Of a stretch of DNA of 64,000 nt, positions 37,472-57,978 are shown one piece after another (position 1 is the stretch's first letter; each line of letters begins with the position of its first letter). The stretch comes from Acidobacteriota bacterium (lineage in GTDB: Bacteria; Acidobacteriota; UBA6911; RPQK01; JAJDTT01): the NCBI GenBank assembly GCA_965217775.1, contig CBDCJH010000002.1, positions 2,688,001-2,752,000 on the forward strand, in the 5' to 3' direction. The notes under the pieces were generated by a model. It had not been told where the DNA came from. It saw only the letters and a list, made by a program, of their open reading frames with translations, and made no database searches. The translations under genes and the position numbers were made by a program.

Positions 37472-37568
37472 ATTCGTATTGCTTGCTGTGTTGTTTCGGT
37501 TTCGCAGGAAGGGCGGTACGGCCTGAGTTGGGGGCTTTCAGGTCGCCCGTGCTCGTAAGAGTCGGCGG
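37472..37568 (+). repeat. 97-bp direct repeat, copy 2
   Basis: Encodes FVLLAVLFRFRRKGGTA* versus FVLLAVLFRFRRKGSTA* in copy 1. Confidence 0.88.
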
Positions 37569-37574
37569 CAAGAA

Positions 37575-39491
37575 GTCACGGTAGGAACGGCAGTTTCCTG
37601 CCGCCCCCCGCACAGATCCGGACGTGCCCGTTAAGGCATCCGGCTCCTACCTTGGGTGTGGACGGCCAGCGGAACCGCTGCCCCGGCCACGGGTGACGGA
37701 TCTTCACGGATGGCCAGAGCAATTCCGTCATCCGTCGCAACCGTCCCCAGCTGAAGCGGTCGCGTTGGGACCGGCGGCGCAAGGCTCGCAGCCACCGCCG
37801 TTGCAGCAGATAGCAGAAACCTCGCAGCCAGCGCGTACTCCCCGGAACCGCAAAATAGTTCAGCCAGCCGTTCAGGACCCGGCTCAACCATTTCCCGACC
37901 TCCCAGTGATCCGCGTGCCGTTGTCTCCACAGCCTCTCCCCCACCCGTTGCAGGGTCCGGTTCATCCGTTTCGCGCTTGGCTTCCGCCCCAGCCGGAAGC
38001 GTCCCTTCCGGGTCTTCGCACAGTAGTGCGTGAACCCCAGAAAGTCGAACGTCTCCGGTTTCCGCTCCCCGCGTCGTCGCCGATCCGCTGCCGCAAATCG
38101 TCCGAACTCCACCAGTCGCGTCTTTTCCGGGTGCAGTTCCAGCCCGAACTCGGCGCACCGTTCCCCCAGGTCTCGGAGAAACCGTTTCGCGTCCGCCCGT
38201 CTCTGGAATCCGGCCACGAAGTCGTCCGCATATCGCACCAGGATCGCTTCGCCTTTCGGGACTCGTGGGCGCCACGTCCGATGGAACCATTGGTCCAGCA
38301 CGTAGTGCAGGTACACGTTGGCCATGACCGGCGAGACGTTGGCGCCCTGAGGCGTCCCTCTCCCCGTGTCCGACCAGGTCCCTTCTTCCATCACGCCGGC
38401 GTTCAGCCACTTGCGCAGCAGCCGCAGCACCCGCCGGTCTCCGATCCGCCGTTCCACGAACTGCATCAGGCAGTCCCGGTCGATCGCATCAAAGAACGTC
38501 CGAATGTCCGCGTCCACGATCCCATTGACTTTCCGCCGTTCGATCCCGTAGGCCAGTGCATCCAGCGCGTCATGCGCCTTCCGTCCGGGCCGGAACCCGT
38601 AGCTGAGCCCGAGAAACTCCGCCTCGTAAATCGGCGTCAGGAGCTCGTCCACGACTGCCTTCTGGAGGATCTTGTCCTCCAGCGCGGCCACGCCGAGCGG
38701 TCGTGTCCTTCCATCCGGCTTGGGGATGTTCACCCGCCGGACGGGAGGCGCTCGGTACGCGCCCCGGTGCACGCGGCGATGCAGGTCCAGCAGTCGCTCT
38801 TCCAGCTTCGCCCCGTACTCCTCCCACCGACCCCATCGATTCCCGGCGCAGCATCCTTCCTCAGTCCGAGGTAGGCGCGGCGCAGGGCCTCCACAGTGAT
38901 ATGGTGCAGCAGCGCGGTCAGTCGCTCCTTGGGGTTTCTCGCGATCGCTCGCCGTATCCGGTCCACCGCTTGGGACACGCTCCCCCGACTCTGCGTCCGG
39001 CGCGTGCTTTGGCTCACCGAATTCCCCTTGGTTCCATCCCTTCGCTCCACCGGCTCCGCCGAGGGTCGCCCCTCTTTGTTCGCCCGCTTCATCGCTACTA
39101 TGGATGAATCCGATTGCTTCGTTCCGTCCATCATGAGTTTCGGGTTACTCCTTTCTCATGCGACCCCGGGGCGACCCCCCGGCGTGAAATGAAGCCCTCC
39201 CAGGTCCCGGAACAAGATTTTGCGTACGTGCCTGGGTTCTTTGACACCGCGGAGCCCGGCCGGCCCTCACCTGGGCGGTCCAGCCGGTGTTGCCTTCGAC
39301 CGCGACTACAGCCTCGGCACTTCCGATCATGGAGCTTTCGATGCTCAATAGCCTGCCCATACGCACCGCTACCGACGCTTCGCCGACACCCTCACGGGTG
39401 CCCACGCACGGCTCGCGGAGAAACGTGGATGGTTAGTCCTTCGTTTCGGCGGACTTCCACCGCCTATCTTGTGCCAGTTAGCCTGGCGCAC
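37575..39491 (-). mobile_element. Group II intron (IIB-like, probably bacterial class E, no endonuclease domain) inserted in a REP palindrome
   Basis: 5' end GTGCG at 39491; domain V GAGCCGGATGCCTTAACGGGCACGTCCGGATC and domain VI ending CTACCGTGAC at 37575; flanks rejoin to GGAGCGGCGGCT|TTCTTGCCGCCGA. Confidence 0.92.
37576..39134 (-). pseudogene. ltrA: Group II intron reverse transcriptase/maturase, frameshifted near 38828
   Basis: N-part ...LTALLHHI..AAPGIDGV and, in another frame, WEEYG..RRVNIPKPDG.TRPLG, SYGFRPGR, DADI..FFD, GTPQG, RYADDF, FDFLGFTH, GWLNYF; one base is missing after GTC. Confidence 0.9.
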
Positions 39492-39531
39492 AGCCGCCGC
39501 TCCCAGTCGGCGACTGGGAAGTCGTCGCTCC
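39492..39531. repeat. REP half (intron 5' exon with IBS1/IBS2) plus an adjacent REP
   Basis: AGCCGCCGCTCCC followed by TCGGCGACTGGGAAGTCGTCGCTCCC. Confidence 0.8.
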
Positions 39532-39533
39532 CG

Positions 39534-41330
39534 TCACCAACCCAGGGCGTAGCAGGCTCGGCGGGGGTCGGCGCCGGTGGCCAGGATTCCCGTGGCCGGA
39601 TCGCGCCAGGTGAGGGTGGCTCCCATTCCGCAGACCAGCGCCGGCACGACGTTGTGGCCCAGTCTCCCCAGCTCTCGGCGGGTGGACTCTGAGAACGCCT
39701 CCTCCAGCGAGAGTTGTCCCGGGAAGTAGACGTGGGGATAGAAGGAGTTGCGGAGGCTGTCGCTCCCGAAGCGGGGCGCCTCGATGGATTCCTGGATGTT
39801 CATCCCGAAGACCAGCACGTTGAGCAGGAGTTGCAGGTTGGCCTGGGCTTGATGGTCGCCGCCGGGGCAGCCGACGGTCATGACCGGTTGCCCGTCCTTC
39901 ACCACCAGGTAGCCGACCAGGGTGGTCCGGGGCCGCTTTCCCGGTTCCAGACCGTTGGGGTGGTCCGGCTTCAGGAAGAACATCTCGCTGCGGGTGCTCA
40001 GGGCACAGCCGATCTCGGGGAAGAAAACCGACTTGCCGAAAGACCCGCCGCTGGGCGTGGCACACACCAGGTTTCCATGATGGTCCACCACGGCGATGTG
40101 GGTCGTCCCCTGCTCGGCGTGGCTGGGTCCCTGAAGGGGCGAAGGGGATGGGGCCTCCTGGGACGGACGTTCCCGGGAGTCTTGTGAGTACTTCCAGGGA
40201 TTGCCGGGCGGCGGCGTGTCGGGATGCGCCTTGCCGGGGTCGAGGAGCCGGACCCGCTCGGCCGCGTATTCCATGGAGAGAAGTCCATCCAGGGGAACGC
40301 GGGCGAAATCGGGGTCGCCGTAGAAGGCTTCACGGTCGGCGATCGCCAGCTTCAATGCCTCCACCACGGTGTGGACGTAAGCTGGCGAGTTGTGGCCCAT
40401 GGCCCCGAGGTCGAAGTGCTCCAGGAGATTCAAGGTTTGCAGCAGGACCGGGGCCTGGGACCAGGTCCGCTGGCAGCAGATTTCGTAGCCCCGGTAACGG
40501 GTGCGGGCCGGCTCCTCGAACTTGGCCCGGTAGCCCGCCAAGTCCTCGGCGCTGAGAATCCCTCCGACACTGCGGGCGCATTCCACTAGGGTGCGGGCGA
40601 GGCGTCCCTGGTAGAAGTCTCGCCGGGCGGCCCGGATCCCCTCGATCCGATCCCGTGATCCCCCCGCGTCACAGGCGGCCAGCCGCCGCAACGTTCGGGC
40701 CAAACCGGGTTGAACCAGGAGTGTACCGGGACGGGGGAGTTCTCCGTTCTCGTAGAAGATCTCGTTGCCGCCGGGCGGGTACTGGTCGAACTGGTCCCGG
40801 GTGGCCTGGGAGTCCAGAGCGTCGATCATGTACTCGTAGTGCGGAAATCCCGCCTGAGCCAGGTGGATGGCCGGCTCCAGGACCTGGGACAGCGGGAGTG
40901 TCCCGTATCGCTCCAGGAGAGACAGATACCCGTCCACCGCGCCCGGAACCGTGAAGGAGAGATGGGCGAGGGGTCCGGGACCGGTGGGGATCTCGTCCAG
41001 TCCCTGACTTCGAAAGAAGTCGACCGTGGCCTGTTCGGGAGCCGTTCCCTGACCGCTCAGCGAGAGGAGATCGCCGCTCTCGGCGTCGTAGAGCATGAAG
41101 ACCGACTCGGCCGCAAGCGAGTACGACGCGACCGGTTCGGTCACGGCGGCCGCGAACCCGGCCGCTACCAGGGCGTCGAAGGCATTCCCGCCCCCCAGCA
41201 GCATGCCCATCCCGGCCATGGAGGTCAGGTAGTGGCCGCTGGAGATGACCCCTTGGGTGGCGTAGATCACCGGCCGGCCGGTGGGGGGCCGGCCGCTGGC
41301 GTCGGTCTGGGACGGGATCGGTCGAACCAT
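39534..41330 (-). CDS. ggt: Gamma-glutamyltransferase family protein (Ntn hydrolase)
   Basis: GGNAFDA, TVPGAVDG, FYQG, EALKLA.ADR..FYGDP, GTTH..VVD..GN.V..T.S, PGKRPRTTL, PGGD.Q, GADPRR. Confidence 0.88.
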   Translation of the reverse strand: MVRPIPSQTDASGRPPTGRPVIYATQGVISSGHYLTSMAGMGMLLGGGNAFDALVAAGFAAAVTEPVASYSLAAESVFMLYDAESGDLLSLSGQGTAPEQATVDFFRSQGLDEIPTGPGPLAHLSFTVPGAVDGYLSLLERYGTLPLSQVLEPAIHLAQAGFPHYEYMIDALDSQATRDQFDQYPPGGNEIFYENGELPRPGTLLVQPGLARTLRRLAACDAGGSRDRIEGIRAARRDFYQGRLARTLVECARSVGGILSAEDLAGYRAKFEEPARTRYRGYEICCQRTWSQAPVLLQTLNLLEHFDLGAMGHNSPAYVHTVVEALKLAIADREAFYGDPDFARVPLDGLLSMEYAAERVRLLDPGKAHPDTPPPGNPWKYSQDSRERPSQEAPSPSPLQGPSHAEQGTTHIAVVDHHGNLVCATPSGGSFGKSVFFPEIGCALSTRSEMFFLKPDHPNGLEPGKRPRTTLVGYLVVKDGQPVMTVGCPGGDHQAQANLQLLLNVLVFGMNIQESIEAPRFGSDSLRNSFYPHVYFPGQLSLEEAFSESTRRELGRLGHNVVPALVCGMGATLTWRDPATGILATGADPRRACYALGW

Positions 41331-41332
41331 GT

Positions 41333-41578
41333 CTACGCCATTGCGGATGGGATCAAACAACTGTTGCTGAATTCACCATCGCTCAAGAGCAAACCGGCCG
41401 CTGCAAGAACGATGGAGTTCACGGAGAGGAAGAACGTGTTTACAACTTGACGCCGCGCGGAAAGCGCTTCGGACGTTTCTACGAACAATCGATACTGCGT
41501 CAGCAACGCTTCCGCGTCGCCGGGCGCGGGTTCGCCGTTACGAAACAACTCATCATCAACTGACTTGTCGTTGTTCAT
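41333..41578 (-). pseudogene. Truncated membrane effector (SLATT/RipA-like), partner of the TIR gene
   Basis: QYRLFVETSEALSARRQVVNTFFLSVNS then one TM helix; ends abruptly beside the ggt start; overlaps the TIR gene end. Confidence 0.5.
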
Positions 41579-41975
41579 TGTACAGGTGAGCCACGATCGT
41601 CTTGATGTCCCACGGCATGGGTATTACACCGATTTCCACTAGCGCCGCCGGAGACCGTGCGGCATTTGATTCCAGGTAGACAGCCAGAACACGTCTACCA
41701 AGTTCCGCACTCCTTCGAACCTCCCAGTTCACCGGCTCGCTACGCCAAGTACTCTCGCCGACCAAACAGATCGTCACACTTGACGCTCGAATGAGACGCT
41801 CCGCATGAATCTTCCACGCACCTTCCACGGGTTCCTTGATGGAGTAGTCACGAAAATCTAAACCTGAATGGCCGTATTGCGCCTGATCTCGAAACAGATC
41901 GACGAGCGGCTTGTGCTCCATGGCGAAACTGAGGAACACCCCGGGGGGCGCTGAAGAGTACGTCATCTCCATCAA
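41556..41975 (-). CDS. TIR-domain protein (DUF1863/MTH538, ThsB-like)
   Basis: VFLSF, DYS..EP, I..SSVTICLVG..T..S..VNWEV..S...G..VLAV with the catalytic Glu; lower GC than flanks. Confidence 0.8.
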   Translation of the reverse strand: MMEMTYSSAPPGVFLSFAMEHKPLVDLFRDQAQYGHSGLDFRDYSIKEPVEGAWKIHAERLIRASSVTICLVGESTWRSEPVNWEVRRSAELGRRVLAVYLESNAARSPAALVEIGVIPMPWDIKTIVAHLYNEQRQVS

Positions 41976-42115
41976 ACGATTTTACAGGGTGATCCCAATT
42001 GTAACACTCCGCAGGACACTCGCTCCCCTTCCCTAGTTGTTCCTGCAGCGCCGCACCACGGCCCCTCCCGGTGTTGGGCGGGACCGAGGGGGAAATTGGG
42101 TTCCCGGTTGAGCGT

Positions 42116-42184
42116 GGGAGCGGGGGTTTGTAACCCCCGATTCCGGGTTGGCGATGAAGAGGGGGACTACAAGTCCCCCCTCTC
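42116..42184. repeat. Divergent REP doublet
   Basis: GGGAGCGGGGGTTTGTAACCCCCGA ... GGGGGACTACAAGTCCCCCTCTC with compensatory stem changes. Confidence 0.6.
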
Positions 42185-42220
42185 AGTTCGAGCTTGTCGT
42201 GGACGGCGGGCCGTGGTCGG

Positions 42221-43687
42221 TCAGGCCAGGATTCGGTCCAACACCTCGCCGTGGACGTCGGTGAGGCGGAAATGGCGGCCCTGGTACTTGTAGGTCAGCC
42301 GCGTGTGGTCGATGCCCAGGCAGTGGAGGAGGGTGGCCTGCAGGTCGTGGACGTGGACCGGGTCCCGGGTGATGTTGTAGGAGAACTCGTCGGTCTCCCC
42401 CAGGACCACGCCCGGACGGACGCCGCCGCCGGTCATCCAGATGGTGAAGCACCGGGGATGATGGTCGCGGCCGTAGTCGGACTCGGTCAGCGGTCCCTGG
42501 CAGTAGACGGTCCGCCCGAACTCGCCGCCCCAGACCACCAGCGTGTCCTCCAGCATTCCCCTCTGCTTCAGGTCCTGCACCAGCGCGGCGGAGGCCTGGT
42601 CGGTGGCCTTGCACTGCTTGGGGAGGGCGGTGGGCAGCTTCCCGTGTTGATCCCAACCCCGGTGGAAGACCTGGATGAATCTCACCCCCCGCTCGGCCAG
42701 GCGCCGGGCGAGCAGACAGTTGGAGGCGAAGGTGCCCGGCTTTCGGGCGTCCTCGCCGTAGAGCTGGAAGATGTGATCCGGCTCGCCGGACAGGTCGGTG
42801 AGCTCGGGCACGGAGGTCTGCATGCGAAAGGCCATTTCGTATTGGGAGATCCGGGCCGAGATCTCGGGGTCGCCCGACTCTTCCAGCTTGATCCGGTTCA
42901 AGCGGTTCAGGGCATCCAGAAAATGCCGGCGGCTATCCCGTCCGAAGCCCTTGGGATCGGAGAGGTAGAGGACCGGATCTCCGACCGAGCGGAACTTGAC
43001 CCCCTGGTAGCGGCTGGGCAGGAAACCGCTTCCCCAGAGGCGGTCGTAGAGCGGCTGTCCTCCGGTCCCCTGGGTGACCATGACCACGAACGCCGGCAGG
43101 TTGCTGTTCTCGTTCCCCAGACCGTAGGCCAACCAGGAGCCCAGACTGGGCCGCCCCGCGATCTGCGCGCCGGTGAGGAGAAAGGTGACGGCCGGATCGT
43201 GATTGATGGCCTCCGTATGCATGGACCGGATGAAGCAGAGGTCGTCGGCGATCTCGGCGGTCCGGGGCAGGAGTTCGCTGATCCAGGCTCCCGACTGGCC
43301 GTGTTGGGCGAACTCGTAGATGGACGGAGCCACGGGAAAACTGCCCTGTTCGGAGGTCATGCTGGTGAGCCGCTGGCCCTGGCGGATGGACTCGGGCAGT
43401 TCCTCGCCGCGGCGGGGGGCCAGGGCCGGCTTGTAGTCGAAAAGGTCCATCTGGGAGGGCCCCCCCGACTGGAACAGCCAGATCACCCGCTTGGCCGTGG
43501 GGGCGAAGTGGGGCAGGGGTGGGACTCCGGGCAAAGCCGCTGTTCGTGTCCCGTCTACGGCGGTCTTTGCAGCCTGAAGGTCTTCCTGGAGCAGCGACCC
43601 CAGGGCGGCGGTCCCGATTCCGGCGGCTGTGGCGCCGAAGAAATGGCGACGGGTCTGCATCAGTCGATATCGGTTCCAGGGATCCAT
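42221..43687 (-). CDS. DUF1501 domain protein (Tat-type signal)
   Basis: TRRHFF; [72 protein letters not shown]. Confidence 0.93.
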
Positions 43688-43694
43688 GGCGGCG

Positions 43695-46973: not shown

Positions 46974-47067
46974 GATCCCCCGCGGCCATCCCCGGTCGGA
47001 TGCCGTAATGACAGTTGCCGACGGCTGGGAGACATCATAGTCAAGAGGGGTTGCTCAGGCAACGACA

Positions 47068-47237
47068 GGAGGGGCGATTTCCAGTCGCCCATTCTTCGTT
47101 TTGCCCACTTGGAAGACGCTACGCGGAGTGGGGACTCCGTCCTCCCAAGACCCCCCTGGTCGGCGGTTGGAAACCGCCGCTCCTCGGCGACAAGAAAGTC
47201 GCTCCCCCCCAATCGGCGATTGGAAATCGCCGCTCCA
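47068..47237. repeat. REPIN-like 116-bp unit (47068-47183) plus two extra REPs
   Basis: Outer inverted GGAG-footed hairpins; the spacer is homologous (inverted) to 50043-50160 and partly to 57830-57885. Confidence 0.82.
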
Positions 47238-47298
47238 GCCGATTCTCAAGTAGGATAGCGGCTGAGTTTGGATCGGGGAGCCACGGAGGGCGCAGATT

Positions 47299-48606: not shown

Positions 48607-48711
48607 TGCCGCTACAAGGCAGGTGCCGTTCGACATCCCCGATGGGACCGGGTTATCCTTTCGCGGGTTTGTGATTCCGGCGTTTGGAAAAATCAGTGTG
48701 AGGAGAATTTC

Positions 48712-50043
48712 ATGACTCAGAGCGTTGCCACGATAGCGGAAAGTTTTCGAGCCCGGACGGCTCGTTCGCGCGAACTGTACGAGGGAGGGACCTCGTATAC
48801 GGCGGGTCCGGCCAAGGGGGCCTACTACTACCGTCCCTATCCTCTCACCATGGACCGGGGAGAGGGCACTCGTCTCTGGGACGTAGACGGGAACGAATAC
48901 CTGGATTGCGCCAATCACCACACGGCCCAGGTGCTCGGGCACAACCATCCTCGAGTGACGGAGGCCGTCTACGCCCAGATTCCCAGGGGCTTGGCCGTGG
49001 GCGCTCCCATGGGGACGGAAGCCCCCATCGCCGAGGAGATGTGCCGAAGGGTCGACTCTCTGGACCGGATCCGCTTCGTCAATTCGGGAACCGAAGCCAC
49101 CCTGCACGCGATTCGGCTGGCTCGCGGATTTACCGGGAAGACGAAGATCGCCAAGTTCGAAGGGGGCTATCACGGCAGTCATGATCCGGTGGAGGTCAGC
49201 GTGGCGCCGCCTCTGGCCAAGGCGGGCCCGGCCCACGCGCCCAACTCGGTTCCGGGGGCGGGGGGGAGTTCTCCCAGCGTGGCCGATGAGGTCGTGGTCC
49301 TGCCCTATGACGACGAAGAGGCGGTGGAACGGCTCATCGTGGAGAACCGGGAAGATCTGGCCTGCGTCATTTTCGATCCCAAGTGCGGGATCCTGCCCAT
49401 CCGGCCCGAATTTGCCCAGGCGGTGCGACGGATCACGCGGGAGAACGGCGTCCTCCTCATCTTCGACGAGATCGTCGCCTTCCGCACGGCTCCGGGAGGG
49501 CTCCAGGCCGTATTCGGCATCGACCCCGACCTGACCTGCTTCGGGAAGATCGTGGGCGGCGGGTTCCCCGTCGGTGCCTTCGGGGGGCGGGCCGACCTGA
49601 TGGATCTCCTGGACAGCAGCAAGCCGGGGACCGGGTTTTCCCAGAGCGGGACCTTCAGCGCCCATCCCCTGGCCATGGCGGCCGGCCTGGCGATGCTCCA
49701 GGAACTGACGCCCGAAGCCTGCGATCACCTGAACCGGCTCGGGGACCGTCTCACCAGCGGCCTCAACCGGATGTTCGCCCGCAGAGGCATCATCGCCCAG
49801 GCCGTCAACACCGGCTCCGTCTTCAGCATCTACTTCGGCGACCACGAGCTGCGGAACTACCGCGACCTGGCCGCCCTCGACAGTTCACTCGTGGCTCCCA
49901 CCTTCCTGGCGCTGCTGGAGGAGGGCTACTTCGTGGGTCACACGCTGGGCATGTGTGCGCTCTCGGTGCCGATGACCGACGGCGATATCGACGGACTGAT
50001 CGAAGCGACCGGCCGGGCCATCGTCCGGGCTCAAGCCGAATAG
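48712..50043 (+). CDS. Class III aminotransferase, glutamate-1-semialdehyde 2,1-aminomutase-like
   Basis: DVDGNEY.D, RFVNSGTEAT..AIRLAR, KFEGGYHG, LLIFDEIV, FGKIVGGGFPVGAFGG, GTFSAHP. Confidence 0.88.
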   Translation: MTQSVATIAESFRARTARSRELYEGGTSYTAGPAKGAYYYRPYPLTMDRGEGTRLWDVDGNEYLDCANHHTAQVLGHNHPRVTEAVYAQIPRGLAVGAPMGTEAPIAEEMCRRVDSLDRIRFVNSGTEATLHAIRLARGFTGKTKIAKFEGGYHGSHDPVEVSVAPPLAKAGPAHAPNSVPGAGGSSPSVADEVVVLPYDDEEAVERLIVENREDLACVIFDPKCGILPIRPEFAQAVRRITRENGVLLIFDEIVAFRTAPGGLQAVFGIDPDLTCFGKIVGGGFPVGAFGGRADLMDLLDSSKPGTGFSQSGTFSAHPLAMAAGLAMLQELTPEACDHLNRLGDRLTSGLNRMFARRGIIAQAVNTGSVFSIYFGDHELRNYRDLAALDSSLVAPTFLALLEEGYFVGHTLGMCALSVPMTDGDIDGLIEATGRAIVRAQAE

Positions 50044-50187
50044 GAGCGGCGACTTTTTTGTCGCCGACCAGGGGGGTCTAGGGGGGACGGCCGTCCCCCC
50101 TCGGCGAAGCGTCTTCCAACCGGGCGAAACGAAGAATGGGCGACTAGAAATCGCCCCTCCCAGTGGGCGATTGGAAATCGCCCCTCC
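50043..50187. repeat. REPIN-like unit plus an extra REP between convergent genes
   Basis: GGAGCGGCGACTTTTTTGTCGCCGA ... GGGCGACTAGAAATCGCCCCTCC, GGGCGATTGGAAATCGCCCCTCC; both flanking TAG stops abut the GGAG feet. Confidence 0.82.
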
Positions 50188-51230
50188 TATCCACTATTGA
50201 CCACTTGGTTCCGATCCTCACCCTGCAGCGGCAACTCCACCCAGGCGCCGGAGCGGGCGTGGGAGAGGTGGAAGCCGGCGATGGCTTCCAGGGTCTCGAC
50301 CGCTTCGACGGCCGGATAGGGGAAGGGGGCGGTCCTTTCCAACCAGTCGACGATCTCCACGACCGCCACGTCCATGGAGGTGGCTTGGGCCCGGGGACTG
50401 GGCCATTCCTCGTTCAAGCCGTCCCAGTACTCGATCCTCACCTCCTCGCCTCCGGTGGTGGCCCGGCCCTCGGTGCCGTTGAAGCCGATGACCATGGGGA
50501 CCCGGGCGTAGTCGGCGGCGTCCACCGTGGTCATGAGGCCTCCTTGGAGCCGCATCACGCCCCATCCTCCCGGGTCCTGAAACGCGGGTCCGCGGCAATC
50601 GGGTTTGCCGGCCAGATCCAGGGTGCCCGAGACCGCTTCCACCCGGCGGCCGGTGATGAGGCGGATGGCGTCCAAGACGTGGGTCCCCACGTTTCCCAGG
50701 CGTCCGGTGCTCCACTGGGCCGTCACCGAAGTCAGCTCGCCCAGTCCTCCGGCGGCGATATGGTCCCGCAGCCTCCGGTAGTTGGGGTTGAAACGGCGGT
50801 TGTGGTTGATGGCCAGCAACGACCCGGCTTCGTCGCAGGCGTCCACCATGTCGTGGCCGTCGGCCACGGTGTTGGCGATGGGTTTCTCGCAGAAGATGGC
50901 CCGGACCCCCTGCCGGGCAGAGGCCACCGTCATCTCCTTGTGGACCGGAGTATAGGTGGCCACGCTCACGATGTCGGCATTTTCCTTCTCCAGCATCTCA
51001 CGCCAGTCCGCATAGGTCCCGATCCCGGTCCGTTCGGTGAACCGTTCCCGCCGGCCCAGGTCCCGGCTGCTACCGGCCACCACCTCGACCCGGGGATGGT
51101 TGGCCAAGGCGTCGATGTGGGTCCCGTCCAGGTCCACCACCAACTGGCCCAACGCGTCTCCGGAAACCTGGTCCGCGCCGCCGATGTAGCCCAGACCCAT
51201 GATCACTGCCCGATGCGATTGATTCGTCAT
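50187..51230 (-). CDS. Gfo/Idh/MocA family oxidoreductase
   Basis: GLGYIG, DIVSVAT, IFCEKP, NHNRRF, GTH.LD. Confidence 0.88.
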   Translation of the reverse strand: MTNQSHRAVIMGLGYIGGADQVSGDALGQLVVDLDGTHIDALANHPRVEVVAGSSRDLGRRERFTERTGIGTYADWREMLEKENADIVSVATYTPVHKEMTVASARQGVRAIFCEKPIANTVADGHDMVDACDEAGSLLAINHNRRFNPNYRRLRDHIAAGGLGELTSVTAQWSTGRLGNVGTHVLDAIRLITGRRVEAVSGTLDLAGKPDCRGPAFQDPGGWGVMRLQGGLMTTVDAADYARVPMVIGFNGTEGRATTGGEEVRIEYWDGLNEEWPSPRAQATSMDVAVVEIVDWLERTAPFPYPAVEAVETLEAIAGFHLSHARSGAWVELPLQGEDRNQVVNSG

Positions 51231-51461
51231 TCGTTTCACTCCCAAATGTTTTTCTGTCAGATGTCCAAACCGGCCTCAAGATACCGCAAAACGAGGAGGG
51301 AGGAGCGGGTGGCTGGTTCTCACTTTTCTCGCCTCTGGTTATGATGGACCGTTCCATCGACAACAATTCGTCGATCGATCTGGAAACACTTGTGGAATGC
51401 CGGTGGGTTCCCTGTCGATCGCCTGTGGATTCCTTGTGGATCCACGACTGGAGGGATTTCC

Positions 51462-53342
51462 ATGACGGCACAACGAATCTGGTTGCCGGTGGCTGCGGCC
51501 GCCGTCGCCATCGGATTGACTCTCACCTCCCACGCTCGGCCTCCCGAAGGCCCGATTCAGGTCCGGATCTGGAAAAACGTCATGGTGCCGATGCGCGACG
51601 GCGTCCGCCTGGCCACCGACGTCTACCTGCCCAATGGCGAGACCACGCCTCCCGGTCCCTTCCCCACCATCCTCATTCGGCACCCCTACGGGAAGAGCAG
51701 ATCGGGCGCGATCGGCGAGTTCTTCACCACCCACGGCTACGCGGTGGCGATCCAGGACGCGCGGGGCCGGTACGACTCGGAGGGGGAATTCTACATCTAC
51801 GTCAACGAGGGCGAGGACGGATACGACGCCGTGGAATGGATCGCCGCCCAACCCTGGTCCAGCGGCGACGTGGGGACCTACGGTGGATCCTATGGCGCCG
51901 CCTGCCAGAACGCTCTGGCGGCCCTCAGACCGCCTCACCTGAGGACCATGTTCGCCTACGTGGGCACCTCCAACTACATCGAGGACGGAGCGGGCCGAGG
52001 GGGCGCATTCGCCTTGCTGCACAACATGGCCTACGGGTTCCGCCTGGCGCAGTTGGGAAAGGAGGCCGAGTCCGGCGACCCCGACCAGGAGGAGGAATCT
52101 CCCACCCGCCTGGCCCTGAACCGGGCCAACGAGCAACTGGCGAGCTGGCTCATGGCGGCTCCCCTAAAGTCCACCTCCCCGTTGTCGTGGACGCCCTCCT
52201 ATGCGAAGTGGTACGCCGACTGGCGGGCGCATCCCACTTACGACGCCTATTGGAAACAGAACGGCTACAACTTCGAGGAGCGCTACTCCCAATACCCCGA
52301 CATCCCCATCTGCTACATCGGCGGCTGGTACGACATCTTCAAGCGGGGAACCTTGAGGAACTTCCAAGGCCTGACCGGGCGCCAGGGTTACGTCCATCTC
52401 CTGGTGGGACCCTGGACCCACTCAACCGGACGGACCTACGCCGGGGACGTGGACTTCGGTCCGGAGGTGAAGATGACGCTCAAGAAGAAGGCGGTGAAGT
52501 GGTTCGACCAGTTCCTCAAGGGAAAGGACCTGGGACTGGACACGCAACCTCCGGTCCGGTACTTCGTCATGGGCGCCGAATCGGCGAAGCGCAACGAGAA
52601 GGGAAGGCTCCAGAGCGGCGGCGCCTGGAAGAGCTCCGACACGTGGCCGCCTGCAGGGTCACGGCAACTGCGCCTGTACCTGCACGGCGACGGCACTCTT
52701 CGCCGCGAGCCGCCTCGGGAAGCGGGTACGAGCGGGTTCGAATGCGACCCCAGGAAACCGGTGCCCACCATCGGGGGCAACATCGATTCCGGCAAGCAAC
52801 TGGTGCGACGGGGCGCCCATAACCAGGTCCCGGTGGAGGGAGAATTCGCGGCCACCGACCTGCTGCCTCTCTCTTCCCGCTCGGACGTGCTCTCCTTTCA
52901 GACGCCGCCCCTGGAAGAGGAACTGGAGATCGCCGGTCCCATGCGGGTGGAGCTCTGGGTCTCCTCCACGGCCAAGGACACCGACTTCACGGCCAAGCTC
53001 ATGGACGTCTATCCCCCCTCGTCCGACTATCCGGAGGGGTACGCCATGAACCTGGAGGACGGAATCCTCCGCATGCGCTTCCGCGAATCCCGGGAACGGG
53101 AGGAGCTGATGGAGCCGGGCACCGTCTACCGGGTGGAGATCGACCTCTGGGACACGGCGAACCGGTTCCGCAAGGGGCACCGGGTCCGCCTGGACATCTC
53201 CAGCAGCAACTTCCCCTTTTATGACGTCAATCCCAACACAGGAGAGTTCCTGGGGCGCCACACCCACATGAAGAGCGCCGTGAACACGGTCTACCATGCG
53301 CCCGATGGAGCCTCGGCGCTGGTCCTGACCGTGCCGGAATAG
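51462..53342 (+). CDS. CocE/NonD family hydrolase (secreted)
   Basis: VPMRDGVRLATDVYLP, QDARGR..SEG, DGYDAVEW, GGSYG nucleophile, GGWYD, GPWTH, DTDF.AKL.DV, SSSNFP. Confidence 0.92.
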   Translation: MTAQRIWLPVAAAAVAIGLTLTSHARPPEGPIQVRIWKNVMVPMRDGVRLATDVYLPNGETTPPGPFPTILIRHPYGKSRSGAIGEFFTTHGYAVAIQDARGRYDSEGEFYIYVNEGEDGYDAVEWIAAQPWSSGDVGTYGGSYGAACQNALAALRPPHLRTMFAYVGTSNYIEDGAGRGGAFALLHNMAYGFRLAQLGKEAESGDPDQEEESPTRLALNRANEQLASWLMAAPLKSTSPLSWTPSYAKWYADWRAHPTYDAYWKQNGYNFEERYSQYPDIPICYIGGWYDIFKRGTLRNFQGLTGRQGYVHLLVGPWTHSTGRTYAGDVDFGPEVKMTLKKKAVKWFDQFLKGKDLGLDTQPPVRYFVMGAESAKRNEKGRLQSGGAWKSSDTWPPAGSRQLRLYLHGDGTLRREPPREAGTSGFECDPRKPVPTIGGNIDSGKQLVRRGAHNQVPVEGEFAATDLLPLSSRSDVLSFQTPPLEEELEIAGPMRVELWVSSTAKDTDFTAKLMDVYPPSSDYPEGYAMNLEDGILRMRFRESREREELMEPGTVYRVEIDLWDTANRFRKGHRVRLDISSSNFPFYDVNPNTGEFLGRHTHMKSAVNTVYHAPDGASALVLTVPE

Positions 53343-53461
53343 CCGCACAGCCCCCCGGCAAGCGGCCCGGCGCAGACCCGAAGTGCTACAATCTGCGGGC
53401 CGGCGAAACCGGGATCACGCCGGCCACGGCAGATTCCACGAAGTTGCGGAGAACACGATCC

Positions 53462-53860
53462 ATGCGAAAATTCACGACTCGACTCGTCCTGAGCCTGTTC
53501 GGTAGCTGTCTGCTCCTGTTGGCCGCCGGCGCCCACGATTGGGAGGCGCCCGAAGAGGCCAAGAAGATGAAGAACCCCCACGCGGCCACCGACGAAGCCA
53601 TGACCCTGGCCAGGACGCAATACGACGAGAACTGCAAGTTCTGCCACGGTGATACCGGCGGTGCTGATGGTCCGGTGGCGGCCATGCTCAAGGAAAAGCC
53701 CCCTCCGTTCAACGAAGCCGAAGCCATGGCGAAGGTCGCCGACGGTGAACTCTTCTGGAAGATCACCAACGGCAAGGACCCCATGCCCGGCTACCAGAAG
53801 AAGCTCTCCGACGAGGAGCGGTGGCAACTGGTGAACTTCATCCGAACCTTCGCCAAGTGA
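53462..53860 (+). CDS. Monoheme cytochrome c
   Basis: Signal peptide; CKFCHG; DGELFWKI..G..PMP; W.LV.FIR. Confidence 0.9.
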   Translation: MRKFTTRLVLSLFGSCLLLLAAGAHDWEAPEEAKKMKNPHAATDEAMTLARTQYDENCKFCHGDTGGADGPVAAMLKEKPPPFNEAEAMAKVADGELFWKITNGKDPMPGYQKKLSDEERWQLVNFIRTFAK

Positions 53861-53874
53861 TCCGCTCTTCCGGC

Positions 53875-55758
53875 ATGAAGGGCCCCATCGACCGCCGTCA
53901 CTTTCTGAAGACGAGTTCCGCGTTGGCCGCCGTCTGGAGCGCTTGCGCCCCAGGCCGGCAAGTTGCGGACCCGGCCGCCCGGGAGTGGCAATCCTACGGT
54001 GGAGACGCAGGAGCGAGCCGCTACTCGCCCCTGGACCAGATCAACCGGGCCAACGTCTCCGAGCTGAAGGTGGCCTGGACCCACCGGACCGGGGATGCCC
54101 TCCAGCGACCGTCCACCACCATCGAGTGCACGCCCATCGTGGTGGACGGCCGCATGTACGTCTCCACGGCCACACTTCAGGTGCACGCGCTGGATGCGGC
54201 CACCGGTCGGAAGCTCTGGAGCTTCGATCCCCACGGCGGGAAGCCGCTGCGGGGGTCCCCCGGGGTCAACCGCGCAGTCACCTACTGGCAGAACCCCGCC
54301 CAGCCTGACGACCGCCGGATCTTCCTGCCGGTCAAGGACATGCTCTTCTCCATCGACGCGGGGACCGGGAAGCTGACGCCCGGATTCGGCCAGGACGGGG
54401 TCATCGACCTGAAACAGGACTTCGACCACGACATGACCGGACTCTCCTTCACCCTGACCAGTCCGGTGGTGGCCTACCAGGACCTGATCATCGTGGGAGG
54501 AGGCGGCGCGGAGGGACCCTACCCGGAGGCGCCGGGCCACATCCGGGGCTACGACGCCGCCACCGGAAAGCGGCGCTGGATCTTCCACACCACGCCTCGC
54601 CCTGGCCAGTTCGGAAACGACACCTGGGAAGGAGACTCGTGGAGGACCACGGGCGGGACCAACAATTGGGGCGGCATGAGCCTGGACCCGGAACGGGGCT
54701 GGGTCTTTGCCTCCATCGGCTCCCCTGCATTCGACTTCTACGGGGGCAATCGCAAGGGGGCCAACCTCTTCGGCAACTGCGTCCTGGCGCTGGACGCCTC
54801 CACCGGGGAACGGCAGTGGCACTTCCAGACCGTCCACCACGACGTCTGGGACTACGACCTTCCGTGCCAGCCGGCCCTCATCAACATGACCCAGGGCGGA
54901 CGGAACTTCGAGGCGGTGGTCCAGCCCACCAAGATGGGGATGATCTTCTTCTTCGATCGGGAGACGGGCAAACCGGTCTTCCCCGTGGAGGAACGGCCCA
55001 TGCCCGCCTCGGACGTTCCGGGCGAGGAGCTCTGGCCGACCCAACCCTTTCCCGTGAAGCCCCCTCCCCTGTGCCGGCAGGGGTTCATGCCGGACCAGAT
55101 CACCGACATCACTCCCGACGCCCACGCCTTCGTCAAGGAGATCTACGACCGCTCCCGTGTCGGGGCACTCTACACTCCGCCCAGCCTCCAGGGGACCATC
55201 ATCCACCCGGGCTTCCGCGGTGGAGCTCTCTGGGGCGGATGCAGCCACGACCCGGTGGCCAACCGGCTCTTCGTGAACACCAGCGAATGGACCAACCGGA
55301 TCACGCTGGCTCCCGCCCGGGAGGACCAACCTTTCGACTACGCCCTTCCCGAACGGGCCCTGTTGCAGGACCCGGAGAAATACCCGGCCATCAAGCCCCC
55401 GTGGGGCTACCTGACGGCCATCGATCTGGACTCGGGGGACTTCGTCTGGCGAGTGGTGGCGGGAGGGATTCCGGAGTTGGAGGCTCGCGGAATCACCGGG
55501 ACGGGGAGCCCCATGCACGGCGGAACCATCGCCACGGCCGGAGGCCTGATCTTCGTGGGAGGAAGTTTCGACAAGAAGTTCCGCGCCTACGACTCCAGCA
55601 ACGGCCAGGTGGTCTGGGAGCATCAGTTGAACGCCGGCGGCTTTGCGACCCCGTCCACTTACGAGGCGGAGGGCCGGCAATATGTGGTCATTGCCGCCGG
55701 GGGCGGCCAGGCCGCTTCCAATTCGGGCGATGAATTCGTGGCCTTCGCGCTGGCGTAA
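53875..55758 (+). CDS. PQQ-dependent dehydrogenase (glucose/quinate/shikimate family), Tat lipoprotein
   Basis: RRHFLK..SAC; W.SYGGD....RYSPLDQIN..NV, TPIVVDG, W.GMS.D, WHFQTVHHD.WDYD, PPWG, TAGGL.F. Confidence 0.9.
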   Translation: MKGPIDRRHFLKTSSALAAVWSACAPGRQVADPAAREWQSYGGDAGASRYSPLDQINRANVSELKVAWTHRTGDALQRPSTTIECTPIVVDGRMYVSTATLQVHALDAATGRKLWSFDPHGGKPLRGSPGVNRAVTYWQNPAQPDDRRIFLPVKDMLFSIDAGTGKLTPGFGQDGVIDLKQDFDHDMTGLSFTLTSPVVAYQDLIIVGGGGAEGPYPEAPGHIRGYDAATGKRRWIFHTTPRPGQFGNDTWEGDSWRTTGGTNNWGGMSLDPERGWVFASIGSPAFDFYGGNRKGANLFGNCVLALDASTGERQWHFQTVHHDVWDYDLPCQPALINMTQGGRNFEAVVQPTKMGMIFFFDRETGKPVFPVEERPMPASDVPGEELWPTQPFPVKPPPLCRQGFMPDQITDITPDAHAFVKEIYDRSRVGALYTPPSLQGTIIHPGFRGGALWGGCSHDPVANRLFVNTSEWTNRITLAPAREDQPFDYALPERALLQDPEKYPAIKPPWGYLTAIDLDSGDFVWRVVAGGIPELEARGITGTGSPMHGGTIATAGGLIFVGGSFDKKFRAYDSSNGQVVWEHQLNAGGFATPSTYEAEGRQYVVIAAGGGQAASNSGDEFVAFALA

Positions 55759-56269
55759 GCCGGGTTCCCGGGGCCGGCGCCTCGGAGCCGCCGGCCTGAT
55801 TCTGTTCCTTGGTGTCCTGACCGGGGCGGCGCGCACGGAAGACAAGGCGCCGGAGCCTCAGCCCATCCCCTTCAGCCACAAGGTCCATGTGGCCTCCGGG
55901 TTGCGGTGCGCCTTCTGCCATCCCATCGAGGAACCGGGCTTCACGGCGGGACTGCCCGCCGAGTCCAAGTGCATGGTCTGCCACACCGCCGTCAAGAGCG
56001 ACAGTCCGGACATCCTGAAGCTGGCGAAAGCCGCCAAGTCGGGCGAGACGATCCCCTGGGTGCGAATCTACCGGGTTCCGGACTACGTCTGGTTCTCCCA
56101 TGCGCTGCACGCCGTGGACGCCAAGATCGAATGCGCCGCCTGCCACGGGCCCGTCGCCACGCGGGAGGTGTTGGTTCAGGAGAAGCCGACCTCCATGGAC
56201 TTCTGCATGGAGTGCCACGCGGCCCACAAGGCCTCCAACGGCTGCGACGTGTGCCATGTTCGGCAGTAG
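55730..56269 (+). CDS. Pentaheme cytochrome c3-family protein (ActA-like)
   Basis: QPIPFSHK.H, five CxxCH motifs, IPWVRIY..PDYV.FSH..H; start uncertain. Confidence 0.85.
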   Translation: MNSWPSRWRKPGSRGRRLGAAGLILFLGVLTGAARTEDKAPEPQPIPFSHKVHVASGLRCAFCHPIEEPGFTAGLPAESKCMVCHTAVKSDSPDILKLAKAAKSGETIPWVRIYRVPDYVWFSHALHAVDAKIECAACHGPVATREVLVQEKPTSMDFCMECHAAHKASNGCDVCHVRQ

Positions 56270-56504
56270 TTGGGAGTATCCATGTTGCAAGTGGTGGGTG
56301 CTAATCGGTGTTTCCATCCCGTGTCGTTAGTGCGTGATCTGTCCGGTCCAAGAGGCACAGGGTTAGGAGGAGCGTTCTTCCGCCGGAGGTGAGGCGGAGA
56401 TCGAACTGGATCCGCCGGGCGCCGTGCAGGGGGCGATGAGTGGACCGATCAACTGGATCGAGGGGCCTGAGATCGTCGACGTCAGTCCTCCGGGAGGTCC
56501 GGAT

Positions 56505-56587
56505 ACGCCCTGGGGAGCGTCGGGTCAAGCCTCCGGCTCCTCCGCTTCGCTGCGCCCCTTCGGGTGACCCGACGCTCCCCAGGGCGT
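56505..56587. other. Perfect 23-bp-stem hairpin in the long downstream non-coding end of the IS110
   Basis: ACGCCCTGGGGAGCGTCGGGTCA (56505-56527) and its exact reverse complement (56565-56587). Confidence 0.75.
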
Positions 56588-56699
56588 GAAGAGCTTTCAT
56601 GGCCGTAAGCAAGCTTCCGGCCAGACCTGACCGGAAGTTCGACAGACGGCCATCAGGGGGTCCACACGCTCCCTTTCCTCACGGGGTCTCTCCGTGGCC

Positions 56700-57647
56700 T
56701 CAGAAGGTCGCTCGGGGCGCTACGGGCAACCAGGTGCGGTCCTGCCGGACGAGGGTGTTGGCCAGGACGATGAGCTTGCGCATGACGGCGACGAGGGCCA
56801 CCTTGCCGGGCTTGCCGCGCTCTCTCAGCCTCCGGTACACCTCGGCCAAGTCGGGGTTCCAGCGCAGGGCGGACACCGCCGGCATGTACAGGAGCCGTCG
56901 CGCCCGCGCCCGTCCGCCGCGGATGAACGCCCGGCCCTGCCAAGCCCCCGACTCGCGCGGAACGGCGGCCAACCCGGCCAGACTGGCGGCGGCCTTGCCG
57001 CTGAGGGCACCCAGCTCGGGCATCTCGGCCAGCAGACCGGCGGCGGTGGTGGCCGCGATCCCCGGGATGGAGGTGAGGATCTCCAACTTGCGGGCCCGCG
57101 CCTCGTCAGCCGCGATCAGCGTCTGCATTTTGCGGTCGATGGTGCGCACGTGACGCTCGAACATGTTGATCTGGGTCTGGTGCTGCTGTTTCAACACGGG
57201 TTCGCGGAGCTGTTGGCGGCGGTTGAGCGTGGCCGTGCGCTGGCGCATCAGCCCGTCCCGGACCATCTGCAGTTCCTGGAGCCGGCGTTGCGTTTTCGAC
57301 GGCGCCGGGGTCCGGCGCGGATCCAGGCTGGCGGCCAACTGGGCCAGTTTCCGAGCGTCTACGGCGTCGGTCTTGGCACGGCTCCCGGTCGCCTCGGCGA
57401 AGCGCCGCGCCTGCCAGGGGTTCACCTTCGCCAGCGGCAGCTTCGCTTTGGACAGCGCTTCCTCGAGGTCCCGGTGGTAGGGGCCGGTGGCCTCGTAGAC
57501 GACGCACTCGACCGGAGTTCCGATCCAATCGATCAGCGCCCGGAAGCCGGCCGGGTCATTGTCGAACTGGGCGGAATGGCCGTCGGCCAGCCGGTGCGCG
57601 TCCAGGTGCGCTTTCGAGATGTCGATGCCTACGGTATGCTGTTTCAT
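56700..57647 (-). CDS. IS110 family recombinase/transposase (DEDD RuvC-like plus Tnp20)
   Basis: GIDISK, VYEATG, KVNP..ARRFA, AKTDAVDA, SIPGI, GLA...RESG (catalytic Ser), GGR...R..LYM.A, A.MRKL. Confidence 0.96.
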   Translation of the reverse strand: MKQHTVGIDISKAHLDAHRLADGHSAQFDNDPAGFRALIDWIGTPVECVVYEATGPYHRDLEEALSKAKLPLAKVNPWQARRFAEATGSRAKTDAVDARKLAQLAASLDPRRTPAPSKTQRRLQELQMVRDGLMRQRTATLNRRQQLREPVLKQQHQTQINMFERHVRTIDRKMQTLIAADEARARKLEILTSIPGIAATTAAGLLAEMPELGALSGKAAASLAGLAAVPRESGAWQGRAFIRGGRARARRLLYMPAVSALRWNPDLAEVYRRLRERGKPGKVALVAVMRKLIVLANTLVRQDRTWLPVAPRATF

Positions 57648-57654
57648 CTTTCCT

Positions 57655-57811
57655 GTCTCCTGTGCTTGTCATTCGGGCCATGATGCCCTTGTATCCATTC
57701 AGGACATCGGGAAAGACGGTGGCCGACCTCACTCCACATCCGGATCTGACGGTCAGCGGCGACACGGTCCAGCCACCGCCGTCCGGGTCGCTCATGAGCG
57801 ACCCGGACGGC
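57655..57811 (-). ncRNA. Predicted IS110 bridge RNA (5' stem-loop, target-binding loop, donor-binding loop)
   Basis: 34-bp palindrome 57778-57811; LTG GTCGCCGCT (57755-57763); RTG GGAG (57732-57735); LDG ATGGATAC (57691-57698); RDG GACAAG (57665-57670); each matches the observed target or donor junction. Confidence 0.82.
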
Positions 57812-57829
57812 CCTATTTAAACAGACAAG

Positions 57830-57978
57830 CGGCGACTTTCTTGTCGCCGAACAGGGGGGCAGGGGGGACGGAGTCCCCACTCTACACATTCCGGCCACGG
57901 AATTGCATAGCAGTAAAAGAAGAGCAGGCGACAAGAAAGTCGCCTGTCCCAATGGGCGGCAAGAAAACCGCCCGTCCC
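57830..57978. repeat. REP/REPIN-like cluster (first REP split by the IS110)
   Basis: CGGCGACTTTCTTGTCGCCGA ... CAGGCGACAAGAAAGTCGCCTG, GGGCGGCAAGAAAACCGCCC. Confidence 0.8.

Follow-up and report, generated by a model that had tools for sequence, protein, structure and literature searches.

Can a retroelement and a DNA recombinase that are unrelated to each other be guided by RNA to the same bases of one repeat? The question is raised by a stretch of 64,000 nucleotides from the genome of an Acidobacteriota bacterium (assembly GCA_965217775.1, contig CBDCJH010000002.1, positions 2,688,001 to 2,752,000; hereafter the window), in which a group II intron and an IS110-family element each interrupt a repetitive extragenic palindromic (REP) sequence. 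The source genome (G000) comprises 6.43 Mb in 2 contigs, with 62% G+C, and 8 sister genomes were searched beside it; the labels G001–G007 stand for sister genomes. On the basis of element boundaries, empty sites, a census of sites and guide-target complementarity with its covariation, we consider it highly probable that a genus-wide REP family, associated with genes resembling REP-associated tyrosine transposases (RAYTs), is the natural homing site of both RNA-guided elements.

Removal of the intron (37575-39491, minus strand) joins GGAGCGGCGGCT to TTCTTGCCGCCGA and recreates a REP hairpin, which the intron splits after the first base of the loop; removal of the IS110 element (56275-57829) likewise restores a REP, GGG-AG-CGGCGACTTTCTTGTCGCCGA. 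Both reconstructions had been put forward in the initial annotation of this stretch, and they agree with the flanks as well as with sister genome G006, in which the two orthologous sites are intact. At the intron site the G006 REP runs without interruption (...GGGAGCGGCGGCTTTCTTGCCGCCGA...) into the same downstream sequence, and at the IS110 site it is again uninterrupted (...GTAGTTGGGAGCGGCGGCTTTCTTGGCGCCGAACAGGGG...), with a single AG core (TTGGG-AG-CGGCGG...). The boundaries of both elements are therefore fixed, and the REP halves that flank them are not part of the elements. The features of the intron locus, including its exon-binding sites (EBS) and the intron-binding sites (IBS) in the flank, are the following.

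37575-39491, minus strand: group II intron of 1917 nt, 5' end GUGCG at 39491, 3' end ...CCGUGAC at 37575 (Rfam)
39492-39503, minus strand: 5' half of the intron-split REP, GGAGCGGCGGCT (IBS2-N-IBS1), from the flanks and the intact G006 ortholog
37562-37574, minus strand: 3' half of the intron-split REP, TTCTTGCCGCCGA, from the flanks and the G006 ortholog
39302-39307, minus strand: EBS1 AGUCGC, intron nt 185-190, in the loop of an Id3-type hairpin in the Rfam alignment
39331-39335, minus strand: EBS2 GCUCC, intron nt 157-161, in an unpaired stretch left open by the Rfam consensus
39242, minus strand: candidate EBS3, the A at intron nt 250, pairing with the +1 T of the 3' exon (alignment column)
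37576-39134, minus strand: reverse transcriptase (RT)/maturase gene, split into frames 38730-39134 and 37576-38772

The repeat that both elements interrupt is a hairpin with a 7-bp stem (CGGCGRY/RYCGCCG), a pyrimidine loop of 3-6 nt and GGAG[C/G] directly 5' of it, so that the unit of ~25 nt has the consensus NGGAG[C/G]GGCG-RY-T-loop-RY-CGCC[G/C]A. Two copies in the window fold as single-stranded DNA at -9.6 and -9.9 kcal/mol. As with known REPs, these are short GC-rich imperfect palindromes present in hundreds of copies: G000 holds 451 units (at most 2 mismatches from one of four cores), preceded by a conserved GGAG[C/G], and GGAG plus the 5' arm is the best-conserved part. Four subfamilies of stem and loop are set apart by compensatory changes in the stem, and the numbers of exact copies of the four cores in G000 are given here.

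GGCGACTTTCTTGTCGCC: 60 exact copies
GGCGGCTTTCTTGCCGCC: 47 exact copies
GGCGGTTTCCAACCGCC: 56 exact copies
GGCGATTTCCAATCGCC: 27 exact copies

A strict 23-nt REP pattern finds 62-176 matches per genome in five sister genomes (reversed control, 0-1). In the window, the 12-mer GGAGCGGCGRCT occurs 10 times with at most 1 mismatch, a number that none of 100 shuffles reached (mean 1.97, maximum 7), and the copies that the initial annotation had placed at 8128, 24269, 35155, 47160 and 50043 are all present. REPs form tandem and inverted clusters in the window, their intergenic placement having been judged by eye; intact units include these three.

24270-24294, plus strand: intact REP unit, an empty target (GGAGCGGCGGCTTTCTTGCCGCCGA), found by sequence match
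50043-50067, plus strand: intact REP unit (GGAGCGGCGACTTTTTTGTCGCCGA), hairpin energy -9.6 kcal/mol
39507-39531, minus strand: intact REP unit (GGAGCGACGACTTCCCAGTCGCCGA), tandem neighbour of the intron-split unit

Three Y1_Tnp (RAYT-like) genes above the Pfam cut-off are present in G000. One of them (G000:C2:4665591-4666266) has a REP 7 nt past its stop codon and, at the 5' end, a sequence like a REP; another REP is split by an IS110 copy whose right end is ~20 nt upstream of the gene. G000 also carries a second family of hairpin repeats (GTAGG-S-GC-NN-CC CTTGTGG...) in ~102 copies.

Some REP units have characteristic neighbours. A conserved module, CAGGGGGG-N3-5-GGGGGGACGGAGTCCCCAC..., itself a small hairpin, follows ~39 of the 451 units (9%), and such composites are found in the window at 57830-57890, 50043-50100 and 47130-47183. 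Composite-type REPs hold 3/4 of the G000 IS110 copies and several of those in G006 and G003, which is more than 9% predicts. A further sequence of ~50 nt (GACTCTTACGAGCACGG.CGACC.GAAAGCCCCCAACTCAGGCCGTAC) occurs twice on the minus strand, at ~35100-35153 and 37508-37561, each time behind a different REP unit; the two units are 2.4 kb apart, and one of them carries the intron.

The intron is recognized by Rfam model RF02005 (domains D1-D4; 166 bits at 39235-39457, gathering score 49), and a match to RF00029 (D5-D6) terminates exactly at its 3' boundary, 37575. In the window copy the RT/maturase gene is frameshifted by private indels (+1 nt near 39221 and -1 nt near 38830); it is intact, with 519 amino acids, in the other 9 full-length copies. 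Contigs that cover the intron in public runs (2 from RNA libraries, 2 of unrecorded kind) have an intact frame at both private-indel sites. The intact protein scores 351 bits with TIGR04416 (cut-off 300) and 5e-35 with RVT_1, and no endonuclease family is among its Pfam and NCBIfam matches at E <= 0.01. Its best plasmid-borne relatives, found by tblastn, are 52-58% identical and are generically named ltrA genes.

How is the REP recognized by this intron? EBS1 (AGUCGC) pairs with IBS1 (GCGRCU, positions -6..-1, with G-U where R = G) and EBS2 (GCUCC) with IBS2 (GGAGC or GGAGG, positions -12..-8). Covariation was examined in 35 loci fetched with both flanks, the 5' end being present in 34 of them (not in L102). 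All 34 form 5 or more of the 6 possible EBS1-IBS1 pairs and 4 or more of the 5 EBS2-IBS2 pairs, G-U counted. Across the genus EBS1 occurs in seven variants (AGUCGC, AAUCGC, AGUCCC, AACCCC, GGGUGC, GGUCGC and GGAUGC) and EBS2 in three (GCUCC, CCUAC and CAUGC), CCUAC pairing with a GUAGG exon and CAUGC with a GCAUG exon. The column of nt 250 varies too: it is A, G or U where the +1 base of the 3' exon is T, C or A, respectively (10/10 aligned sequences, three variants), and it is taken as a candidate EBS3. Each EBS variant matches the REP variant that is occupied or, occasionally, the occupied non-REP site.

By blastn, G000 contains 10 full-length introns at 98.7-100% identity, one 5'-truncated copy and a 67-nt 5' fragment, together with four mini-introns of 642-755 nt that lack the open reading frame (ORF) and retain ~550 nt of the 5' part and ~94 nt of the 3' part. 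The expectation that other copies would lie at the same position was borne out: 9/10 full-length introns, the truncated copy and 3/4 mini-introns occupy one position in REP-type hairpins of the main family, that after the first loop base, and the flanks of the 9 full introns and 3 minis follow the pattern GGAGNGGCGRYT↓T(T)CYNN..CGCC (the arrow marks the insertion point). The fourth mini-intron (3224157) has inserted into a member of the second hairpin family (GTAGGGGCACCC↓CTTGTGGGTGCCC), and its EBS1 GGGUGC and EBS2 CCUAC are exact complements of its own exon. The intron family was found in 7/8 sister genomes searched, where most sites are hairpin repeats with a 5' arm of the matching variant. 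Under strict criteria (an arm of 7 nt with no more than 1 mismatch) 20/32 of the relatives' intron sites count as hairpins; several of the negatives (L078, L082, L086 and L090) are degenerate REPs by eye, the 3' end is doubtful in L083 and L085, and in L089 and L091 the fetched stretch contains no 3' end.

Among the G000 copies, two mini-introns (G000:C2:4405417-4407265) separated by ~1.2 kb share the same 3' flank, and local duplication seems a likelier origin for the pair than separate insertion. Three of the intron-occupied sites combine a 5' arm (GGCGAC) of one REP subfamily with a 3' arm (GCCGCC) of another. The mini-intron G000:C2:1903834-1904588 has an AT-rich insertion of ~113 nt in domain I and is shared with G007 (L042/L050), where its flanks are the same; it is thus an old, vertically inherited copy.

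The other element encodes a recombinase that scores 206.5 bits with NF033542 ('IS110 family RNA-guided transposase', cut-off 140). Its plus-strand flanks read TTGGG-AG↓element↓AG-CGGCGACTTTCTTGTCGCCGA, hence the target contributes one copy of the AG (CT) core. The element has neither terminal inverted repeats nor a target duplication, and a CT core is present at both junctions in 4/4 G000 copies. Its features, with the left and right target guides (LTG, RTG) and left and right donor guides (LDG, RDG) of the putative bridge RNA, are listed here.

56275-57829, minus strand: IS110-family element, 1555 nt including both AG/CT core copies (flanks and G006 empty site)
56700-57647, minus strand: IS110 recombinase gene, 315 amino acids (PF01548, 82 bits; PF02371, 67.5 bits)
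57648-57829, minus strand: bridge-RNA left end comprising target-binding and donor-binding loops and a perfect hairpin at 57779-57810
57755-57763, minus strand: LTG GUCGCCGCU, identical to the left target plus core (GTCGCCG-CT), pairing with the bottom strand
57732-57737, minus strand: RTG GUGGAG, complement of CT-CCAC, its register read by hand
57691-57699, minus strand: LDG AAUGGAUAC, matching the right end ...ATGGATA-CT
57663-57670, minus strand: RDG GACAAGCA, whose GACAAG is complementary to CT-TGTC at the left end
57830-57850, plus strand: hairpin part of the IS110-split REP, CGGCGACTTTCTTGTCGCCGA; the GGG-AG part is at 56272-56276

The 182-nt left end has a fold energy of -88.8 kcal/mol (z-score -6.0). 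Aligned with one another, 11 distinct left ends from six genomes share two stem-loops with large internal loops, and the columns that vary are confined to the guides (two short segments of the first loop and its inner hairpin); the inner stem of the donor-binding loop shows a compensatory GC->AU change in 2/11 sequences. Rfam matched no bridge-RNA family on the IS110 element, only chance-level miRNA models on the palindrome 56503-56589. The arrangement follows the bridge-RNA description by Durrant et al. 2024 (PMC11208160), in which the 5' side of a loop pairs with 8-9 nt of the bottom strand and the 3' side with 4-7 nt of the top strand, the core taking part in both pairings. The guide strings named in the initial annotation, i.e. 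EBS1 AGUCGC and EBS2 GCUCC for the intron and LTG GUCGCCGCU and RTG GGAG (here in G-U-GGAG) for the IS110 element, are all present. The element further contains two long near-perfect palindromes, one of ~85 nt (56503-56589) at the right end, downstream of the recombinase gene, and one of 32 nt (57779-57810) at the start of the bridge-RNA region.

All four G000 copies are in REPs, with flanks ...CGCCG↓element↓CTCC... and AG↓CGGCG as their common position. Two subtypes, ~97% identical, can be told apart, each in its own REP subfamily: the two copies of subtype 1 (LTG GUCGCCG) are in GTCGCCG and GCCGCCG (U-G) REPs, and the two of subtype 2 (LTG ACCGCCG) in AACCGCCG REPs. Sister genomes extend this series. 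In G006 the LTG is ACCGCCG in 10/13 copies, which are in AACCGCCG REPs; in G004 it is GUCGCCG, equal to the local REP arm; in G001 it is CACGCCG, with ACACGCCG REPs occupied, and in G003 GACGCCG, with AGACGCCG REPs occupied. There are at least 5 LTG variants across the sister genomes, each matching the occupied site, and the LTG agrees with its target at 7-9/9 positions in 20 genus rows. RTG variants track the flanks as well (UGGGAG with CTCCCA, CUGGAG with CTCCAG, CGGGAG with CTCCCG); they were read by hand, and the guide tables lack G004 copies L028, L059, L016, L024 and L018. Hence the guides of both elements (EBS1, EBS2 and EBS3; LTG and RTG) track the occupied REP variants in relatives, as had been predicted for them.

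A second IS110 family in G000 (57% amino acid identity, same ends) has 4 copies, near 1657626, 3135424, 5761205 and 6040600. It sits at CCCGGTATG-CT-CCCTC in a repeat resembling a miniature inverted-repeat transposable element, with ends CCGTGGTAAAAGTC.../...GACTTTCACCACGG, and has guides ..GUAUGC.. and a matching RTG GAGGGAG; in two of its copies ~110 nt at the left end are duplicated in tandem. Two of the 4 REP-borne G000 copies (L069 and L070) contain a nested insertion sequence (IS) of ~1.85 kb, at G000:C2:2676783-2678631 and 4663684-4665530, outside the window. The ends of this IS are inverted (GGGTGCACGAC...), and it is accompanied by a duplication of 9 bp (GGATGGAAA), 36 nt away from the right end of the IS110 copy. 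Its transposase is of the ISKra4 family (NCBIfam) and split over two frames, and two of its ORFs have no Pfam match; three more copies or fragments of this IS are elsewhere in G000. In G005 the locus orthologous to the intron site of the window (L111) has, beside a REP, ~19 nt that resemble the right end of IS110 (AGTATCCATGTCGCAAGTG); they may be the remnant of a lost IS110 copy, the recombinase query having found no IS110 in G005.

To what extent do the two elements read the same bases? In REP orientation the intron reads -12..-8, -6..-1 and +1 and the IS110 element approximately -14..-2, so the two footprints overlap by 11 nt. The crossover core of the IS110 element is at -10/-9 and the joint of the intron at -1/+1, i.e. 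~8 nt apart within the same arm with IS110 upstream, which is the spacing given in the initial annotation. No REP unit with both elements was found in G000, among 22 genus IS110 flanks or among 34 intron flanks. Chance expectation is well below 1 (<0.2 in G000, from 13 main-type introns, 4 IS110 copies and ~450 units), so this lack is uninformative either way. In G006 an IS110 copy and a mini-intron are in adjacent REP units of one cluster, 23 nt apart. The initial annotation held that IS110 insertion splits IBS2 and so destroys the intron site; IBS2 is indeed split, but 'destroys' is too strong, since IBS1 and the last 3/5 IBS2 bases remain (...CAAGC-G-GCGACT). Conversely, intron insertion leaves the 9-nt left target plus core and CTCC of IS110, and the adjacent stem is lost. 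For ISPpu10, a stem-loop beside the target is reported to matter, in a preprint on an IS110 element (10.64898/2026.03.19.712850). Interference between intron and IS110 is plausible in both directions, as judged from what each insertion would leave for the other.

The sequences suggest how each element would reach its site. Through RNA-DNA pairing of EBS2, EBS1 and EBS3 the intron would read the top strand of the REP and insert after the first loop base. The nine intact copies would supply the RT/maturase, which presumably mobilises in trans the frameshifted window copy and the ORF-less mini-introns of ~640 nt. The left end of the IS110 element would encode a two-loop bridge RNA whose RTG pairs with CTCC(NN), and the crossover would fall in the AG/CT core, 8 nt 5' of the point where the intron inserts. 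Both elements are presumably active in vivo, the intron in splicing and retrohoming and the IS110 element in RNA-guided recombination; for the intron, the near-identity of its copies and the exact empty sites are indirect evidence. In sister species both guide systems appear to have drifted, or to have been re-set, to the REP variant present. The REP would thus act as a neutral, multicopy, evolutionarily stable landing pad that the two elements exploited independently.

Endonuclease-lacking (En-minus) introns prefer the lagging-strand template. In G000, where cumulative GC skew has its minimum at ~4.95 Mb and its maximum at ~1.65 Mb, the sense strand is on the G-rich (leading-sequence) strand for 10/10 full introns, the truncated copy, the 5' fragment and 3/4 minis; empty REP-type sites with the 12-mer are divided 54 vs 53 between the two orientations. 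In G002, G005 and G006, too, plus and minus intron copies form two contiguous arcs. Because no endonuclease domain was detected and the copies are biased in strand, priming of the intron is probably dependent on the replication fork. A 2015 review describes En-minus introns as priming from replication-fork strands.

Several observations weigh against the REP family as the natural homing site of two active elements. A full-length intron (G000:C2:3929720-3931636) is at a non-REP site, GGAGATGCGGCT↓G, within a long ORF and in sense orientation; this site matches IBS2 and IBS1, and its +1 base is G. Three intron copies in G004 occupy one non-hairpin, non-REP repeat, and three IS110 copies in G006, with LTG ACCGACG, are in non-REP GTCACCGACG sites of another repeat. 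Among sites with the same 12-mer in the same orientation, 9/63 of the REP-type and 1/36 of the non-REP ones are occupied by the intron, a difference that is not significant, and a hairpin requirement for intron insertion was dropped for this reason. The RTG of the window IS110 matches its own right flank, CT-CCCA, at 4/6 positions, and several G006 RTGs match their sites at 3-5/6. The RF00029 match reaches 37.5 bits (E 3e-5), just below the gathering score of 40, and no contig joint that skips 37575-39491 is present in the four public runs, although contigs can show neither absence nor level nor strand. The initial annotation had proposed a look for a RAYT flanked by the repeat; a RAYT-like gene with a REP does exist, but the scores with NCBIfam REP_Tyr_transpos (78.2, 70.5 and 50.6 bits) are all below the cut-off of 80. 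With respect to the strand bias, the mini-intron 1903834, 250 kb from the skew maximum, is the sole copy in the opposite replication orientation, and the bias is confounded with gene orientation according to a rough GC3-filtered ORF test, to be taken as indicative. As the non-REP copies (G000 3931636, the three G004 introns and the three G006 IS110s) demonstrate, the REP is the usual site and not an obligatory one.

Other explanations cover parts of these data. The strand bias might reflect co-transcription with an upstream gene, genes favouring the leading strand, instead of priming at the fork. In keeping with this, a co-oriented gene (39534-41360, minus strand) ends 42 nt upstream of the window intron, and an upstream ORF ending within ~45 nt is co-oriented in at least 5/15 copies; however, such an ORF is opposed in at least 3/15 copies, which nevertheless keep their replication orientation. 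In view of these copies, and of the lack of a detected endonuclease domain in an intron whose En-minus counterparts use fork strands as primers in the review cited above, we regard co-transcription as rather unlikely. The intron might also recognise the structure of the REP hairpin, as class C (IIC) introns do at terminators and attC sites, with pairing being secondary. The geometry of insertion between 5' arm and loop is constant in two hairpin families (GGAG...T↓TCTT and GUAGG...C↓CTTGT), occupancy is nominally higher in hairpin sites, and the reading of structure at REPs has a precedent in the preprint mentioned above, which reports a target stem-loop as an extra determinant for an IS110 element. 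However, constant geometry is equally expected if the REP variants are homologous, and the difference in occupancy is the non-significant one given above. Moreover, IBS1 is the 5' arm itself and would be hidden from EBS1 in a folded hairpin, full copies are also found in guide-matching non-hairpin sites (once in G000 and three times in G004), and pairing is in three parts over 12 nt with full covariation, whereas IIC introns are described in the review as relying on terminator or attC motifs and not on a long homing site. Recognition of structure in place of sequence therefore appears improbable.

The shared target could further be a passive filter: an element whose guide happens to match a multicopy neutral sequence would reach a high copy number, in which case the overlap would be meaningless and the elements would not interact. 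The overlapping bases are simply the most conserved ones of the REP, there is no co-occupied unit and no exclusion beyond chance, and in G006 the two elements are neighbours. On the other hand, guides were re-set repeatedly in several species (7 EBS1 and at least 5 LTG variants), which suggests that the match is maintained and not accidental. We find the passive filter a possible but less favoured account; it differs from the homing-site reading solely in denying selection for the match. At the other extreme, the REPs, maintained by a RAYT (a domesticated Y1 transposase), and two hyperparasites with guides speciating along the subfamilies could form a layered co-evolving system, in which variation of the REP stem would be partly driven by escape and intron and IS110 would interfere at each unit, the IS110 element by altering IBS2 and the intron by removing the stem-loop beside the IS110 target. 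Taken as a whole, such a system seems to us an unlikely one.

If the REP family is the homing site of both elements, the genus would constitute a natural experiment in guide reprogramming, in which a retroelement and a recombinase re-set their guides many times along one 25-nt repeat. For both systems it would supply a whole series of guides matched to their targets, among them LTGs switched to non-REP sites by a single base. Natural specificity rules of compact En-minus introns with ORF-less partners and of IS110 bridge RNAs could be read from genomes. REPs would then act as hubs where mobile elements of different mechanisms meet. Three target specificities of group II introns in bacteria are listed in the 2015 review, namely homing sites, terminators and attC sites, which REPs could join as a fourth natural target.

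How does this compare with systems already described? IS110 insertion into REPs is established for IS621 of E. coli, ISPpu9 and ISPpu10 of P. putida and ISPa11 (PMC11208160, PMC1525189), and 144/173 IS621 insertions are in REPs (PMC11208160). In P. putida KT2440, Tobes & Pareja (2006) tabulated as REP-associated 7/7 copies of ISPpu9, 7/7 of ISPpu10 and 2/9 of a group II intron. Apart from that entry, no REP-homing group II intron family was found described in the open-licence literature and bioRxiv; nor was a description of an intron and an IS110 element sharing a REP arm found in the same literature, which is not proof of absence. The statement in the initial annotation that no description was known thus stands for the shared arm, but not for IS110 in REPs, nor entirely for the intron in view of the 2006 entry.

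The IS110 element described here resembles IS621, ISPpu9, ISPpu10 and ISPa11 in its two Pfam domains, the two-loop RNA of the left end, the CT core and the REP targets; as in IS621, the LTG pairs with 8-9 nt of the bottom strand and the RTG with 4-7 nt of the top strand, and as in ISPpu10, the REP hairpin is 5' of the target core. It differs from all four in the REP family and the guides, in having two guide subtypes in one genome, each with its own REP subfamily, and in that its target arm is also used by a retroelement. With RmInt1-type introns the intron shares an RT/maturase without endonuclease domain, EBS-IBS homing, a multicopy non-essential target and a high copy number; the target here is a 25-nt REP hairpin, whereas that of RmInt1-type introns is a multicopy insertion sequence. 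Like class C introns it is En-minus and tied to DNA hairpins, but its insertion point is within the loop instead of behind the hairpin, and it relies on EBS2 and a 6-nt EBS1; membership in this class was rejected because of the in-loop insertion and the presence of a covarying EBS2. Thermophilic-cyanobacterium introns (PMC2882425) are similar in being numerous, in having relatives that lack the ORF and in the divergence of their EBS towards new sites, but diversification here follows variants of one REP superfamily. P. putida KT2440 likewise has IS110 elements and a group II intron associated with REPs in one genome; there the intron association is weak and is given no mechanism, whereas here it amounts to 9/10 copies and is accompanied by guide pairing, covariation and a shared footprint. 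What appears to be new here is a REP-homing En-minus intron family with ORF-less partners that shares a REP arm with a bridge-RNA IS110 element, and the parallel diversification of the guides of intron and IS110 across one genus.

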